A stretch of DNA of 6,518 bases from Candidatus Iainarchaeum sp. (GCA_030649345.1 JAUSKK010000053.1:1-6518); one strand, 5' to 3'; numbered from the stretch's first letter, positions 971 to 6,518 are shown. Made by a program: numbers and translations. Notes: generated from the sequence alone by a model not told the origin.

Positions 971-2011
971 TTATTTTCCTTCTTTAAGATTTCTTTGTCC
1001 TTCTTCTTCAATTACTCTTCCAATTTCAGCTCGCATTCTAGGTCCAGCAGCTAAAGGAATTATTACATCGGCTAAAATTCCATTGTAATGACTGGAAGGC
1101 ATCCAAATTCTTGAATTCTGTCCAATCGGATAACCTGTAATAAAACCATCGCTATAATCTGAGTACGTGTACCTATATCCTCGTTCTTTCCAGCGTTCTC
1201 CACGCGGAAGAGCTCCAGTTTGCACTTCACTTATCTGAGTAAAGTTAAGCCACTCACTTTGTCTAAATTGCCATCGCAACCAATGTTTTTCGTCATTGGA
1301 TGCTCGTCTGTTTTCTCTAACTGAGGCATTCGCTAAATCATCTCTTGCGATTCCACCCAATCTTTTTTTCTGGCTCCAAAAATTTCCCTCAGTTTCATTG
1401 AATTTTTTTGCCTCTGCTCTATTTTCTAAATTTCTCATAAAACGATTGTAGGCAACAATGAATACACTTTGTTGATAGTAACGATTGCTTTTCATTTGTT
1501 CTAAAACTTTTAGTACTCCTGGTTTTCCAGTTAATCCTTTTGGAATCACGCGTTCTATTGCTTTATCTATAGTCTCCTTAACTTTTTTGTCTCTTTGACT
1601 TTCTGCAAAATCGCGTAATTTCAATACTTTTCCCCCGCGTGTGTTTTCTATTCTTTCTGCTCTTCTTTGAGCTGCTTGAATTCCTAGTGTATAGTCTGCG
1701 ATTCCTGCAGCAACTCCTGCTATTGCCAATCCTGTTATGATTCTAGAAGCACGAGGTCTAGGTCTGCCTGTTCTTTTTGCTAATTTTCCTTTTTCAGGTT
1801 CTACTGCAACAACAGTTGGAGCTGTTGTGCTTGAACTAGCTGAAATTATTTGAGTTGGTGGTACGTTTTTTCCTAAAACTTTTCTTTGCAAACTGCGAAT
1901 TTCTTGTAGAGTTAAATTTCTTCCATTAGGTCCAATTTTTCGTGTGCGAATTGCTTGGGTTATTATTTCTCGTTTTCTTCTTGGACCCAATCTTGTTTTT
2001 TTTAATTGCAT
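971..2011 (-). CDS. hypothetical protein, 346 aa: very basic N-terminal ~90 aa, one hydrophobic segment, then a ~230-aa Arg/Trp/Tyr-rich C-terminal domain; no family recognised
   Basis: Long ORF in the track. Stop TAA (973-971) is 1 nt from the hisS ATG (969), suggesting translational coupling. TTTAAAAA box at 2034-2041 lies at -23 to -30 from the ATG. Hydrophobic stretch IITGLAIAGVAAGIADYTLGI at about aa 91-111. I recognise no catalytic motif. Confidence 0.8.
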   Translation of the reverse strand: MQLKKTRLGPRRKREIITQAIRTRKIGPNGRNLTLQEIRSLQRKVLGKNVPPTQIISASSSTTAPTVVAVEPEKGKLAKRTGRPRPRASRIITGLAIAGVAAGIADYTLGIQAAQRRAERIENTRGGKVLKLRDFAESQRDKKVKETIDKAIERVIPKGLTGKPGVLKVLEQMKSNRYYQQSVFIVAYNRFMRNLENRAEAKKFNETEGNFWSQKKRLGGIARDDLANASVRENRRASNDEKHWLRWQFRQSEWLNFTQISEVQTGALPRGERWKERGYRYTYSDYSDGFITGYPIGQNSRIWMPSSHYNGILADVIIPLAAGPRMRAEIGRVIEEEGQRNLKEGK

Positions 2012-2069: not shown

Positions 2070-2095
2070 AATTCTTTTTCTTTTGGCAACTTACA

Positions 2096-2124
2096 TTTTC
2101 TTTTTCTTGCCAAGAAAAAGAAAA
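2096..2124 (-). terminator. A/T-only perfect palindrome with T-runs directly after tRNA-His; probable terminator or processing hairpin
   Basis: ttttctttttcttg (2096-2109), c, caagaaaaagaaaa (2111-2124) are exact reverse complements. On the minus strand the element starts TTTTCTTTTTCTT, 5 nt after the tRNA discriminator base. Oligo-T tracts are archaeal termination signals. Confidence 0.45.
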
Positions 2125-2129
2125 GGCAG

Positions 2130-2331
2130 GACCGCGGCCGAGAATCGAACTCGGGTCCGAAGCTATCAGCAACAACTTTTTGTTGTTCACGGAAAAGGTT
2201 CGCGCGGAGCGCAATTTTTCGTAAACCTTTTTCTAAAAGGTTTCGCCGAAGGCCTTTTCCGTTAACGCTTTTTTGCGTTAGCAAAAAAGGGTTACCACAG
2301 GCTTCTATTCTACCTCTAAACTACCGCAGTC
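2130..2331 (-). tRNA. tRNA-His (anticodon GUG) with genome-encoded G-1, discriminator C73, no encoded CCA, and a ~130-nt intron (2165-2294) between positions 37 and 38
   Basis: Hand-folded cloverleaf, part 1: G-1; acceptor ACUGCGG/CCGCGGU; U8 A9; D-arm GUUU-AGAGGUA-GAAU with A14, G18G19 and A21; A26. Part 2: anticodon stem GAAGC/GCUUC; loop C32 U33 G34 U35 G36 G37 | intron | A38; variable GGAC; T-arm CCGAG-UUCGAUU-CUCGG; C73. A G-1:C73 pair is the hallmark of tRNA-His. Confidence 0.9.
2165..2294 (-). other. tRNA-His intron (~130 nt), highly structured
   Basis: RNA sequence: UAACCCUUUUUUGCUAACGCAAAAAAGCGUUAACGGAAAAGGCCUUCGGCGAAACCUUUUAGAAAAAGGUUUACGAAAAAUUGCGCUCCGCGCGAACCUUUUCCGUGAACAACAAAAAGUUGUUGCUGAU. 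Helices seen: CUUUUUUGC/GCAAAAAAG (9 bp); long-range ACGGAAAAGG/CCUUUUCCGU (10 bp); AAACCUUUU/AAAAGGUUU (9 bp); UUGCGC/GCGCGA (6 bp including one G-U); AACAAC/GUUGUU (6 bp). Exact splice boundaries are inferred from the cloverleaf, not demonstrated. Confidence 0.7.
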
Positions 2332-2343
2332 ATACGAAACCGC

Positions 2344-2452
2344 GGGAACCAAAGTTCAACAGAAAACTACTGTTTTCTGTGCCTTACAAAACCATTGGTT
2401 TTGTTTGGTCCCCTCAGTTTGAGGTTCCTCCTGATCCCCTTCCTTGATTATA
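2344..2452 (-). ncRNA. candidate structured 5' leader or novel small RNA immediately upstream of tRNA-His, with a three-way junction core at 2344-2412
   Basis: P1 is GGGACCAAA (2412-2404) paired with UUUGGUUCCC (2353-2344), 9 bp with one bulge. P2 is CAAAACC-AAU-GGUUUUG (2403-2387). P3 is ACAGAAAAC-AGUA-GUUUUCUGU (2380-2359). An extra hairpin CCUC-AAAC-UGAGG lies at 2424-2412. No TATA-like box lies within 30 nt of the tRNA-His 5' end; the nearest one (2473-2483) would start transcription near 2452. Confidence 0.4.
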
Positions 2453-2472: not shown

Positions 2473-2483
2473 TATAATTAAAA
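2473..2483 (-). promoter_or_regulatory. TATA-box candidate (TTTTAATTATA on minus strand) for the leader/tRNA-His transcript
   Basis: A/T box about 22-30 nt upstream of the start of the GC-richer structured segment. Positional inference only. Confidence 0.3.
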
Positions 2484-2588
2484 GTACTTAAAAAAGTAGT
2501 TAAAACTTGCTTGTTTGGGTTTAAAAAAAAGAAATTCAACAAATTAGTCTTATTTAGAGCTAATTCATTGTTTTCGGTGTTGTTTTTA

Positions 2589-2948: not shown

Positions 2949-2980
2949 TTTTTATAACGAATTTTCCTGCCGGCTATGTC

Positions 2981-2988
2981 TTTAAATA
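2981..2988 (+). promoter_or_regulatory. TATA-box candidate (TTTAAATA) for the 728-aa gene
   Basis: Lies 34-41 nt upstream of ATG 3022, predicting a short ~8-10 nt 5' UTR. Confidence 0.4.
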
Positions 2989-3021
2989 CATTAAACCCAT
3001 TTAATAGTGTGAGCAAATTTT

Positions 3022-5208
3022 ATGAAACCAGTTAATACATTAGCTATTGTTTTTGCAGTTTTATTAATTATTTTAGGGTTTGTTTTGTTTATTGTTCCGC
3101 CTCAGCCTGGAACTGCTGGGCCTTTTACTGGTCAAAATTCTTTGCGCATGAAATTGGTTTCTTCAGATAATGTTCCGTTAGAGAATGTTCGTGTTGAATT
3201 AATTGATTTAAATTCCAATCAAGTGGTTTCCACTCAGACTGCTTCAGAAGATGGAACTGTTAATTTTGAAGGAGTCAATCCAGAAACAGATTATGCTGTT
3301 ACTGTAATCTCTGGATCTAATGAACACGGAACCCAAGTAAGAACTACTAGTGTTGTTTCTGCAGTGAGTGATTCTACTGGAACCAATTCTAGTCCGCGTG
3401 TTTTAGAAGTATCCAATCAAACAGTACGCGAAGTTGTTGCAAGCACTGAAACCAGTTTACGAGTAACTGTTTTGGATTCTTCCAATCGTACTCCTTTAAG
3501 CAATGCACAAATTCAATTAACTCAAAACAATCAAACAGTTTCCAATACAACTACAGCTCCGACATTTATTTTTTCCACAGTATCTCCTGGAACCAGTTCT
3601 TTATCTATTTCTTTAACAGGATATGTAACGTATGTTCAATCGGTTACAATTGCTCAAGGAAGCAATCGTTTAACTGTTAATTTACTTCGATTGAATGATG
3701 ATTTATCTGGAACTACAGATACTGATTCTGGAACCAGTACTTCAGATAATTCAGATAATGTTAATGATTCTCAAATCAACAATTCAGATAATTCTCAAGA
3801 CACTGGAACCAATCAAGATGGAACTCAAGTTACAAAATTTTCTTTATTGTTTGCAGTTACCAATACAGAAACTTCGCAACCTGTACAAAATGCAATTGTG
3901 ACTTTAAAAAATTCAGTCAATCAACCTATGGATGAAAAAACAGTTGACTCTCAAGGAAAAGGAAGTTTTACTGATTTGAATGCTGGAAATTATTCTTTGA
4001 TTGCTTTTAAAGACGGTTATTCTTTGGACACAAAACAAGTAACTTTGAATGTTTCTACTACAGCAACTGTTGTCTCTTTGCGTATTGCTCCTTCTGGAAT
4101 TTCTTCTGATTCAAGTACTGGAAGTATGCGATTTGTAATTGTAAAAGATTCTGATTCAAGTCCTTTAAGTGGAGCCAATATTTCTGTGACTGGAAATAAT
4201 GTCTTGAAATGTTCTGGTGTTTCCAATGCTCAAGGACAATATACTTGCACTGATTTGAATCAAAATGTTTCGTATTCAGCTACTGTTACTTTACAAGATT
4301 ATAATCCAAAAACAGAAACATTTACTTTAGGAACATCTGATAATTTAACAATTCGTTTGACTTCAACCAGTCAACAATCCGGAAATACTGCTGCTCAATT
4401 AACTGTTTCAGTCAAAGATTCTTCCAGCAATCAAGCAATCTCTGGAGCCAGTGTTACTCTAAATTCAGGCAGTTCAACTGGTCCACAAGTTGGTTCTACT
4501 CAAACCAGTGCTAGTGACGGAACTGTAACTTTTACTGGTTTAACTTCTGGTACAACTTATTATGCGAATGCCAGCAAGTCAGGGTATACTTCTAGTTTTT
4601 CAGCTGCTCCAGTTGTTGCTGGTTCGAATACTTCAACTGTTTTTTTAACAGCTAGTTCACCCCAGCCTTCAAATACAGCTACTTTGAATGTTTCAGTTAC
4701 TTGCGGCGGAACACCAGCTTCCAGTGTTTCTTTAAGTTTATGTCCTTCTGGTCAAGCATGTGCTAGTGGTACAACTGATGGCTCGGGCAATTATACTTTT
4801 TCCAATATTGCAACTGGCAGCTACAATATTAATGCCAGCAAAACTGGATGCAATGCAATCACCAATCAAGCTATGACTGTGAATGCTGGAGCTAATAGTT
4901 ATGTGGTAACCATGACTCAAGAAGTACAATCTCCGAATGCCAGTGCAGATTTAGTGATTTATCAATGGGGTAATAGCGAAATGCGCATTTCAGGCGCTTT
5001 GGTTGAATTCTTGAATGCTTCTCAAACTGTAGTAGCTTCTGGAACTACCAGTGCTCAAGGTACTGTAGTAGTAACTGGATTAACTTCTGGCACAAGTTAT
5101 ACTTTGCGTATTTCTGCTTCAGGTTACAATACCTACACCAATTCTGTAAATATCAATAATGCAGGAGTCAATTATTTAGGAGACGGTGCATTAACTCCTT
5201 CTGGCTAA
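3022..5208 (+). CDS. N-terminally anchored secreted surface protein with ~7 tandem ~80-aa beta-sandwich repeats (carboxypeptidase-regulatory-like / PEGA-like) and an acidic Asp/Ser/Asn/Thr linker; probable glycoprotein
   Basis: 728-aa ORF. N-terminal MKPVNTLAIVFAVLLIILGFVLFIVPP is a signal anchor. A recurring pattern appears seven times: hydrophobic-x-V-x-V/L-x-D/N...PLxGAxVxL...(D/Q)G(T/x)vxFxgL..G.Y...A.K.GY. The repeats start near aa 41, 146, 272, 369, 459, 553 and 643. The low-complexity linker is aa 225-269 (nt 3694-3828). About 19 N-x-S/T sequons by hand count. Confidence 0.85.
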   Translation: MKPVNTLAIVFAVLLIILGFVLFIVPPQPGTAGPFTGQNSLRMKLVSSDNVPLENVRVELIDLNSNQVVSTQTASEDGTVNFEGVNPETDYAVTVISGSNEHGTQVRTTSVVSAVSDSTGTNSSPRVLEVSNQTVREVVASTETSLRVTVLDSSNRTPLSNAQIQLTQNNQTVSNTTTAPTFIFSTVSPGTSSLSISLTGYVTYVQSVTIAQGSNRLTVNLLRLNDDLSGTTDTDSGTSTSDNSDNVNDSQINNSDNSQDTGTNQDGTQVTKFSLLFAVTNTETSQPVQNAIVTLKNSVNQPMDEKTVDSQGKGSFTDLNAGNYSLIAFKDGYSLDTKQVTLNVSTTATVVSLRIAPSGISSDSSTGSMRFVIVKDSDSSPLSGANISVTGNNVLKCSGVSNAQGQYTCTDLNQNVSYSATVTLQDYNPKTETFTLGTSDNLTIRLTSTSQQSGNTAAQLTVSVKDSSSNQAISGASVTLNSGSSTGPQVGSTQTSASDGTVTFTGLTSGTTYYANASKSGYTSSFSAAPVVAGSNTSTVFLTASSPQPSNTATLNVSVTCGGTPASSVSLSLCPSGQACASGTTDGSGNYTFSNIATGSYNINASKTGCNAITNQAMTVNAGANSYVVTMTQEVQSPNASADLVIYQWGNSEMRISGALVEFLNASQTVVASGTTSAQGTVVVTGLTSGTSYTLRISASGYNTYTNSVNINNAGVNYLGDGALTPSG

Positions 5209-6271: not shown

Positions 6272-6354
6272 TGCACGGAGAAGGACTCGAACCTTCGGAC
6301 CCACTAAGGGACAGGCTTCTGAAGCCTGCGAAATTGCCGCTATTCGATCCGTGC
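6272..6354 (-). tRNA. tRNA-Leu (anticodon CAG), class II with long variable arm, no encoded CCA, no intron
   Basis: Hand fold, 83 nt. Acceptor GCACGGA/UCCGUGC with A73. D-arm GAA(U)-AGCGGCAA-(U)UUC, then G26. Anticodon arm CAGGC-UUCAGAA-GCCUG. 15-nt variable arm UCCCUUAGUGGGUCC. T-arm GAAGG-UUCGAGU-CCUUC. The 27-nt A/T-rich spacer upstream (6355-6381) contains AATATTTATTTTTT on the minus strand, which could act as terminator and/or promoter. Confidence 0.9.
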
Positions 6355-6381: not shown

Positions 6382-6518
6382 TGACCCCGCTGGGATTCGA
6401 ACCCAGATCACAAGCTAATTGCATTCTTTCTTGCGAAGTATTTACCTTCGGCTTTTGCGTAAGCAAAAAGTTTTGCCGTGAGGCACTTTTTGCTCACGTT
6501 TTCCGTAAACGATTTTTT
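6382..6518 (-). tRNA. partial intron-containing tRNA of undetermined identity: 3' exon 6382-6417, intron from 6418 running off the window (more than 100 nt)
   Basis: Minus strand reads ...U-AGCUU-GUGAU-CUGGG-UUCGAAU-CCCAG-CGGGGUC-A. That gives a 3' anticodon-stem strand, a 5-nt variable loop, a canonical T-arm, a 3' acceptor strand and discriminator A. No D-arm or matching 5' anticodon-stem strand (AAGCU) occurs in the 101 nt upstream, so the interruption is long and the 5' exon lies outside the window. Confidence 0.65.

Follow-up and report, generated by a model that had tools for sequence, protein, structure and literature searches.

Introduction

The introns of archaeal tRNA genes have been reported to range from 11 to 129 nt, with medians mostly between 12 and 25 nt, and those of the canonical kind lie at position 37/38, one nucleotide 3' of the anticodon, where EndA and RtcB process a motif of the type called bulge-helix-bulge (BHB), with two 3-nt bulges (2014 review, PMC4090602). 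Here we describe the tRNA-His(GUG) gene in the metagenome-assembled genome (MAG) of a DPANN archaeon, 'Candidatus Diapherotrites' (Candidatus Iainarchaeum sp., GCA_030649345.1, JAUSKK010000053.1:1-6518). The gene lies on a contig of 6518 bp, which is covered in full and is called the window below. The gene is interrupted by 130 nt at the canonical site, 1 nt more than the upper end of the reviewed range (PMC4090602). Our analysis indicates that this insert is probably a protein-spliced archaeal BHB intron of the ordinary type. It shares with the canonical introns its position, the two 3-nt bulges as predicted, an archaeal host and a cloverleaf that is restored when it is removed, and it differs from them in its length and in having a relaxed BHB that is not the minimum-energy fold. 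Its length and dense helices are best read as the neutral accretion of palindromic A-run/U-run hairpin modules in a tolerated intron.

Nanoarchaeum equitans, also a member of the DPANN group, reportedly has a split tRNA-His, credited to Randau and colleagues in 2005, that is broken at the same 37/38 site and whose complementary halves form a BHB-like substrate. The window gene is different in that its exons follow each other on one strand 130 nt apart, so that it has a cis intron and does not consist of two genes. Split tRNAs have been reviewed (PMC4090602), and the greater disruption of tRNA genes in DPANN archaea, tied to variants of EndA, has already been described (PMC5829648). If spliced as predicted, the window intron would marginally extend the reviewed length range, and it would provide a dated instance of intron gain or expansion, being present here and absent from six syntenic relatives, in a group whose tRNA disruption is known and poorly catalogued.

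Results and Discussion

A tRNA-His gene interrupted between G37 and A38

Applied to the whole window, neither ARAGORN with default settings nor Rfam at the gathering score returned anything but a tRNA-Leu(CAG) at 6272-6354. Default tRNA finders thus miss the tRNA-His gene, and with them the MAG would seem to have no tRNA-His. When introns were allowed, ARAGORN reported a tRNA-His at c[2129,2330] with the anticodon gtg and i(37,130), that is, an intron of 130 nt after position 37. A first reading of the window, made from the nucleotides alone (the sequence-only reading), had claimed that a tRNA-His, canonical once its exons are joined, is truly interrupted at 37/38 by an insert of about 130 nt at 2165-2294. 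The interruption was confirmed by ARAGORN -i together with an alignment to six orthologues, and the coordinates and length given for it proved exact.

The 5' exon opens with an encoded G-1 (2331) and runs through the acceptor strand ACUGCGG (2330-2324) and the D arm to the anticodon stem GAAGC and the loop residues C32 U33 G34 U35 G36 G37, in which the anticodon GUG occupies 2298-2296 and G37 is at 2295. The 3' exon resumes with A38 (2164) and continues through GCUUC, the variable GGAC, the T arm CCGAG-UUCGAUU-CUCGG and the acceptor strand CCGCGGU to the discriminator C73 (2130); CCA is not encoded. In the alignment both exons were collinear with six syntenic, intronless tRNA-His genes and the insert fell exactly between G37 and A38, so that the alignment gap and ARAGORN agree on the canonical location. 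Removal of the insert left a canonical tRNA-His cloverleaf, as is expected of a BHB intron, in the ARAGORN -i prediction and in the alignment with the orthologues. A split or permuted tRNA-His was rejected, since both exons lie in order on the same strand. Compared with the orthologues, the window exons carry two compensatory double changes, A1-U72 for G1-C72 and U12-A23 for G12-C23, which argue that selection continues to maintain the cloverleaf of this gene and count against a pseudogene.

The intron is absent from syntenic relatives

Six related loci were reached through their histidyl-tRNA synthetase (HisRS) proteins, which are 58-64% identical to that of the window (L083, L084, L085, L087, L089 and L090; L numbers denote the loci collected in this analysis). 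The best match, at 64% identity, suggests that no close relative has been sequenced, and the NCBI naming and the HisRS homologues point to an archaeon of the Diapherotrites as the host. A tRNA-His(GUG) gene was found just upstream of HisRS in all seven loci, the window included, and this conserved order identifies the window gene as an orthologue of the other six. In the relatives HisRS begins within about 20-330 nt after tRNA-His, two of them having an open reading frame (ORF) of 84-85 codons in between. The pairing of the tRNA with its cognate synthetase may reflect co-regulation.

None of the six orthologous tRNA-His genes contains an intron, and the interruption in the window is therefore probably a lineage-specific gain. 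The course of events that appears most likely from this comparison, and the simplest, is that the intron was gained or greatly expanded once this lineage had separated from the relatives sampled here, although these may conceivably have lost it independently. The interrupted gene is probably the sole tRNA-His gene of the host archaeon.

A relaxed BHB motif is predicted at the splice junctions

The exons and the intron were paired explicitly in the canonical register, intron residues being numbered from the 5' splice site. The central helix then consists of C32-G128, G34-C126 and U35.G125, with a U33xU127 mismatch, which amounts to three of four pairs. It is accompanied by two 3-nt bulges, G36 G37|U1 and A129 U130|A38, and by an inner helix of 3 bp, A2A3C4/G122U123U124. 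In window coordinates G122U123U124 faces A2A3C4 at 2293-2291, and G125C126U127G128 stands against U35 G34 U33 C32 at 2297-2300. A relaxed BHB with three of four pairs and a short AAC/GUU inner helix had been described in the sequence-only reading, and explicit pairing and a constrained fold reproduced it exactly. Measured against the hBHBh' form, in which a 4-bp helix parts two 3-nt bulges and further helices flank them, the register is right, the central helix has three of four positions paired (with one G.U pair and one U.U mismatch) and the inner helix has 3 bp, like the weakest DPANN examples. Splicing in the 38/39 register was rejected after pairing by hand gave only two of four central pairs and left C32 unpaired.

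Forcing the BHB upon the anticodon arm and intron gave -41.5 kcal/mol compared with -51.4 kcal/mol for the free fold, a difference of 9.9 kcal/mol to its disadvantage, and each of the three testable central-helix pairs had a probability below 0.5% in the unconstrained ensemble. These pairs are improbable because the hairpins P1 and P5 of the intron, described below, sequester A2A3C4 and G122U123U124. In the same test, other DPANN tRNA-His introns at 37/38 mostly had all four central pairs and inner helices of 0-9 bp, and the 37/38 intron of L054 likewise had one mismatch in its central helix. In these models the window BHB thus appears relaxed and in competition with local hairpins, at the weak end of the real DPANN range. 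The predicted geometry, with two 3-nt bulges in register, three of four central pairs and a 3-bp inner helix, lies within what is seen in other DPANN tRNA-His introns at 37/38 and is one of the points in favour of a BHB intron. The tRNA-His pre-tRNA would be a demanding natural substrate for gauging how much BHB relaxation the splicing endonucleases of DPANN archaea tolerate.

An imperfect and thermodynamically disfavoured BHB could also mean that the gene is a pseudogene, disrupted by a palindromic, hairpin-rich insertion akin to a miniature inverted-repeat transposable element (MITE), while a second, intact tRNA-His elsewhere serves translation. The insert is lineage-specific, as this would require, and it has company at the locus in two other lineage-specific insertions, the upstream element and ORF346 (see below). 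We nevertheless consider a pseudogene very unlikely. The insert occupies precisely the 37/38 site and has its two 3-nt bulges in register, intact exons bear the compensatory pair changes, and the conserved position upstream of HisRS has been kept; neither terminal inverted repeats nor a target-site duplication were seen in the sequence at the intron junctions. According to a passage in PMC4307357, each isoacceptor generally has a single gene in archaeal genomes. Moreover, the equally long insert of a neighbouring tRNA cut by the contig end, for which a perfect central helix may be deduced, suggests that long introns are processed in this host.

Long introns are common in DPANN tRNA-His genes

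Homologues were sought in genomes and metagenomes with patterns taken from the tRNA-His 3' exon, the genome set comprising one genome per GTDB species. The genome scan gave at least 80 loci, all of them tRNA-His. Poseidoniales dominate the matches listed, and their tRNA-His genes among those matches are intronless. Among the complete tRNA-His genes of DPANN archaea (Micrarchaeota, Iainarchaeum, Diapherotrites) in the same matches, 17 of 32 are interrupted, with introns at 37/38 of 15, 43, 43, 46, 56, 56, 70, 84 and 94 nt, the last three belonging to L051, L025 and L047, respectively; the window intron is longer than any other 37/38 example among the matches listed. A D-loop intron occupies one homologous site in the tRNA-His of Micrarchaeota (L006, L014, L033, L041, L042, L046, L053, L054, L073 and L076), and two genes (L053 and L054) carry both the D-loop and the 37/38 intron. 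Across species the D-loop intron measures from 8 nt (L006) to 135 nt (L014), which shows that intron length at a single site is plastic in DPANN archaea. The D-loop introns of L054, L073 and L076 have a common start, AGGCCUUUU.

The long DPANN tRNA-His introns resemble that of the window in the tRNA that they interrupt, in their site (L047, L025 and L051) and in the style of their palindromic hairpins, which are built of A-runs against U-runs, as in the window, or of purine runs against pyrimidine runs. In L047 and L051, as in the window, the inner helix adjoins the splice sites. They differ from the window intron in having no detectable sequence similarity to it, and in L047 the central helix is complete at 4 bp and the inner helix has 6 bp, whereas the window intron is relaxed. 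The description of the intron as unusually long, which had been given from sequence, stood with respect to the range of 11-129 nt (PMC4090602), but in DPANN archaea tRNA-His introns that are long and rich in hairpins are common, and the window intron is an extreme case of a known and locally common phenomenon.

The intron folds equally well on both strands

The minimum free energy (MFE) of the intron was -46.6 kcal/mol, compared with -26.6 +/- 3.6 kcal/mol in 200 dinucleotide shuffles (z -5.65), none of which folded as well. The MFE structure has five helical elements, in which approximately 96 of the 130 nt (about 74%) are paired. A 5' hairpin (P1, 4+9 bp) is followed by a 10-bp long-range stem (P2) between intron positions i33-42 and i97-106 (2262-2253 / 2198-2189), which closes a three-way junction with two hairpins inside it (P3, 4+9 bp, and P4, 6 bp), and a 3' hairpin (P5, 6 bp) comes last. 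A fold of five helices with a 10-bp long-range closing stem had been proposed before, and it holds for the MFE structure. The reverse complement of the intron, at -51.0 kcal/mol (z -5.67), folded equally well. G.U pairs do not occur in the predicted helices, in which A-runs face U-runs in Watson-Crick pairs only and which are low-complexity palindromes with several possible alternative pairings. The lack of G.U pairs and the equal fold of the antisense strand indicate palindromes at the level of DNA that leave the transcribed strand unmarked, and nothing in the predicted fold marks selection at the RNA level.

Such dense folding had earlier been taken as a sign of a functional RNA. The excised intron would then be a stable, probably circular RNA with a three-way-junction core and flanking hairpins, a protein-binding or regulatory by-product of tRNA-His maturation. 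Its exceptional stability and extensive pairing agree with this, the high structure is a local feature of the tRNA unit, and the upstream element described below has a similar three-way-junction design and size and is strand-asymmetric. Precedents are provided by the tRNA-Trp intron of Euryarchaeota, which nests a box C/D RNA (PMC4090602), and by the circular tRNA introns in animals described in a passage of PMC4536317. However, dense folding did not hold up as evidence of function, for the antisense strand folds as well, the predicted helices have no G.U pair, these low-complexity helices have alternative pairings, none of the six syntenic relatives has the intron, the loci searched yielded no homologue, and neither a C box nor any Rfam family at E<0.1 was detected apart from noise. 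We judge a functional RNA unlikely, and a function of the intron's own is unsupported.

No known RNA family or homologue accounts for the intron

Rfam offered no family that fits the intron, either at the gathering score in the window or at E values up to 10 in 1950-2700 on both strands, and the proposal that such a scan might class it came to nothing. The matches around the intron were noise (RAGATH-19 with 19 bits against a cutoff of 85.6 bits, microRNA-like hairpins and others), and among those at E up to 10 in 1950-2700 there was no model of a group I intron, a ribozyme or a small nucleolar RNA (snoRNA). The intron ends in GCUGAU, with CUGA at i126-129. The tRNA-Trp box C/D intron of Euryarchaeota (PMC4090602) is likewise unusually long and at the canonical site, and the 3' CUGA of the window reads like a D box. 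The window intron differs from it in lying in another tRNA and in having no C' or D' boxes, kink-turn or Rfam snoRNA match, and a C box (RUGAUGA with at most one mismatch) was not found on either strand of 2165-2294. A box C/D guide RNA was accordingly rejected, in line with the sequence-only reading, which had seen no support for one.

Group I introns have a conserved P3-P8 catalytic core and are typically longer than 200 nt. At 130 nt the insert is too short for a group I intron, as had been noted from sequence, and it is unlike any Rfam family; a group I intron was rejected on these grounds, the scans at the gathering score and at E values of 10 or less included. The same applies to the small self-cleaving ribozymes (hammerhead, twister, hepatitis delta virus-like and others), no covariance model of which matched at E up to 10 on either strand of 1950-2700. 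Bacterial tRNA introns in the anticodon loop are group I introns and, as a passage in PMC6125680 reports, group I introns occur in archaea, which would be in favour of a self-splicing or self-cleaving RNA. Its size, the lack of any matching family on either strand, the archaeal host and junctions that fit the BHB register leave this explanation effectively refuted.

None of the at least 80 tRNA-His loci listed from the genome scan contained an intron similar to that of the window. A stricter exon pattern applied to metagenome contigs gave one chance match in a high-GC coding region, and searches of viral contigs with the 3'-exon pattern, the 5' junction and a block shared by two introns of the window (see below) gave nothing or chance coding matches. 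When all fetched loci were compared by blastn-short, neither of the two introns had a homologue among them, nor did the upstream element. The sole notable result of that comparison, a 21/22 match in L039, lies in an A/T-rich palindrome within apparent coding or terminator sequence and was judged to be due to chance. Homologous introns with which covariation could be analysed were thus absent from the loci and from the metagenome and viral scans.

Proposed maturation and origin of the intron

For an ordinary BHB intron, the tRNA-His gene would be transcribed with a structured 5' leader, and RNase P would remove the leader and leave the encoded G-1 in place. EndA would then cleave within both 3-nt bulges on either side of the imperfect 32-35/125-128 helix, and RtcB would ligate the exons and, as with other archaeal BHB introns, probably also circularise the freed 130-nt intron. 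The anatomy of exons and intron, the thermodynamic stability, the lack of the intron in syntenic relatives and the lack of a known RNA family come from the analysis itself, and the enzymes, the circularisation and the neutrality of the intron are proposals. Neutral accretion is suggested by the plasticity of intron length at one site in DPANN archaea, by the absence of the intron from the relatives and by the strand symmetry of its fold.

Several points weigh against this account. The predicted fold is not a canonical BHB, whose formation would cost about 10 kcal/mol at the low central-pair probabilities given above, and a U33xU127 mismatch lies within the central helix. Neither EndA nor RtcB genes were found on the 6518-bp contig, and the claim of a single tRNA-His gene, which we make as a probable one, comes from one contig of 6.5 kb. 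Neutrality is argued from absence of evidence, the nearest HisRS being 64% identical, and pure neutrality would not predict the concentration of structure in and around tRNA-His that the fold models indicate.

A second interrupted tRNA and a possible intron family

Another interrupted tRNA is cut by the end of the contig. Its 3' exon (6416..6382, minus strand) reads A-GCUUG-UGAU-CUGGG-UUCGAAU-CCCAG-CGGGGUC-A, with A as the discriminator, and is very like the 3' exon of tRNA-Arg(GCG) in L085, a gene without an intron. In front of it lie at least 102 nt of sequence rich in hairpins (6518..6417; fold z -2.61), which run off the contig and whose last six nucleotides are GCAA followed by UU. We infer that GCAA would pair without a mismatch with U32U33G34C35 in the loop of an Arg(GCG) tRNA, which would give a central helix of 4 bp and a 3-nt bulge. 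From these features, the second insert is probably another very long intron at 37/38, in a tRNA that is probably Arg; conceivably, the exon is the 3' half of a split tRNA.

The His intron and the second intron share a block of 18/20 nt (His i21-40 and the first 20 visible nucleotides of the other) and a block of 16/17 nt. With stricter gap scoring their local score was reached by 23 of 3000 dinucleotide shuffles and beat the other 2977 (p ~0.008), and looser gapped scoring gave z ~2.2-2.3 (p ~0.03). The similarity hints at a common origin without establishing it. Families of transposed introns are said to occur in the tRNA genes of Thermoproteales, an observation attributed to Fujishima and colleagues in 2010. 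The window would resemble them in a possible kinship between introns of different tRNAs (His and probably Arg) and differs in that the kinship consists of two short blocks, both introns lie at the canonical site and the host belongs to DPANN and not to Crenarchaeota.

Modelled on the intron transposition proposed for Thermoproteales, the insert could belong to a family of long BHB introns that is mobile and proliferating and has lately spread from one tRNA gene to another in this lineage. Three tRNA genes lie on the 6.5-kb contig, and at least two of them carry an insert at 37/38 that is no shorter than 102 nt; the orthologues of both are intronless in the relatives, and the shared blocks with their local score point the same way. 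Yet the looser scoring gave only z ~2.2-2.3 (p ~0.03), what the two blocks share is hairpin sequence of low complexity, about 90 other loci and the viral collection yielded no further copies, and the second intron is cut, its 5' junction lying outside the contig. The idea of a mobile intron family, raised in the sequence-only reading, thus gained a hint from the two blocks and no more than that, and we hold such a family to be rather improbable, though less so than a functional RNA. It concerns only the origin of the insert and is compatible with ordinary BHB splicing, so that the likelihoods given to the different explanations need not sum to one. In a wider and equally tentative form, the His intron, the intron of at least 102 nt and perhaps the 84-nt upstream element would be products of a recent lineage-specific burst, in which palindromic inserts of a mobile DPANN BHB-intron family invade tRNA units, possibly as a stage toward split tRNA genes. 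The locus would gain larger interest only if both long introns on the contig belonged to a mobile family; alone, the His intron opens no new question.

Surroundings of the tRNA-His gene

The features of the window are collected in Table 1.

Table 1. Position and basis of the features assigned in the 6518-bp window
Feature	Position	Strand	Basis
tRNA-His(GUG) gene	2331..2130	minus	encoded G-1; split between G37 and A38
tRNA-His 5' exon	2295..2331	minus	sequence, ARAGORN -i, alignment with six intronless orthologues
tRNA-His intron, 130 nt, canonical 37/38 site	2165..2294	minus	ARAGORN -i i(37,130), fold
Predicted BHB, 3' half	2165..2173	minus	explicit pairing and constrained fold
tRNA-His 3' exon	2130..2164	minus	sequence, ARAGORN -i, alignment with six orthologues
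Structured element of 84 nt, its 3' end 5 nt upstream of G-1	2337..2420	minus	fold
Candidate archaeal TATA box TTTTAATTATA	2474..2484	minus	sequence, analogy with TATA-like boxes of orthologues
T-rich run and near-perfect palindrome UUUUCUUUUUCUUGGCAAGAAAAAGAAAA, downstream of tRNA-His	2095..2124	minus	sequence
ORF346, MDO8428936.1, between tRNA-His and HisRS	971..2011	minus	accession, protein search
HisRS gene, N-terminal 323 codons, cut by contig end	1..969	minus	Pfam tRNA-synt_His (Logan copy), translation, homologues
Second interrupted tRNA, cut by contig end	6382..6518	minus	sequence, likeness to tRNA-Arg(GCG) of L085

Upstream of tRNA-His, the 84-nt element is predicted to fold into a three-way junction with a closing stem of 6+9 bp, containing G.U pairs, around two hairpins. 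On the tRNA strand its free energy was -36.2 kcal/mol (z -5.90), compared with -28.7 kcal/mol (z -4.35) on the antisense strand, which folds less well because of the G.U pairs in the closing stem; for the 139-nt upstream stretch 2332-2470 the z scores were -5.78 and -2.97, respectively. The element had no Rfam match and showed no similarity to the intron (706 of 1000 shuffles scored as well). No counterpart of it was found in the six syntenic relatives, in which A/T-rich, TATA-like sequence lies directly upstream of the gene. In the window the nearest TATA-like sequence, TTTTAATTATA, is about 140 nt upstream, which would give a structured 5' leader of about 120 nt if this box is used. By analogy with the orthologues we infer such a long leader for tRNA-His, and the 84-nt element may be a co-transcribed leader RNA. 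In L085, approximately 150-200 nt of G+C-rich hairpins (GAACAUCCGCCUUCGGCAGGAUGUCC, GUGCCACUGAAAGUGGCAC) at about 9352-9554, directly upstream of a tRNA-Thr(UGU), recall the upstream element of the window.

Downstream of the gene, the T-rich run with UUUUCUUUUUCUUGGCAAGAAAAAGAAAA is likely an oligo-T terminator region, judging from its sequence. A second strong palindrome, GUGCAAUGCUUUAGCAUUGCAC, lies at 2045-2068 on the minus strand, and the downstream stretch 2012-2128 had a fold z of -3.82. An independent Logan assembly (SRR13727527) stops at window position 2011, just before the palindromes UUUUCUUUUUCUUGGCAAGAAAAAGAAAA and GUGCAAUGCUUUAGCAUUGCAC. The other non-coding segments gave z values of 0.0 (2471-2610), +1.9 (2611-2711) and +1.0 (2949-3021), and high predicted structure is concentrated in the tRNA-His unit and is not general to the non-coding DNA of the contig.

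Compared with the other loci, ORF346 is an insertion into the conserved tRNA-His-HisRS pair. Its product has a basic N-terminus and is an orphan, matching only itself among 5.8 billion proteins, and comparison with Pfam and PHROGs gave sub-threshold matches only. Two of the relatives (L085, 8336-9028, and L089, 5524-6540) have ORFs resembling LAGLIDADG-type homing endonucleases downstream of HisRS, in the midst or the vicinity of tRNA genes, and a tRNA-Thr(GGU) follows HisRS in four of the six. On the plus strand, 3022-5208 of the window encodes a Ser/Thr/Asn-rich protein of 728 residues with an N-terminal hydrophobic segment and at least seven CarboxypepD_reg/prealbumin-like repeats, features by which it is probably a surface protein.

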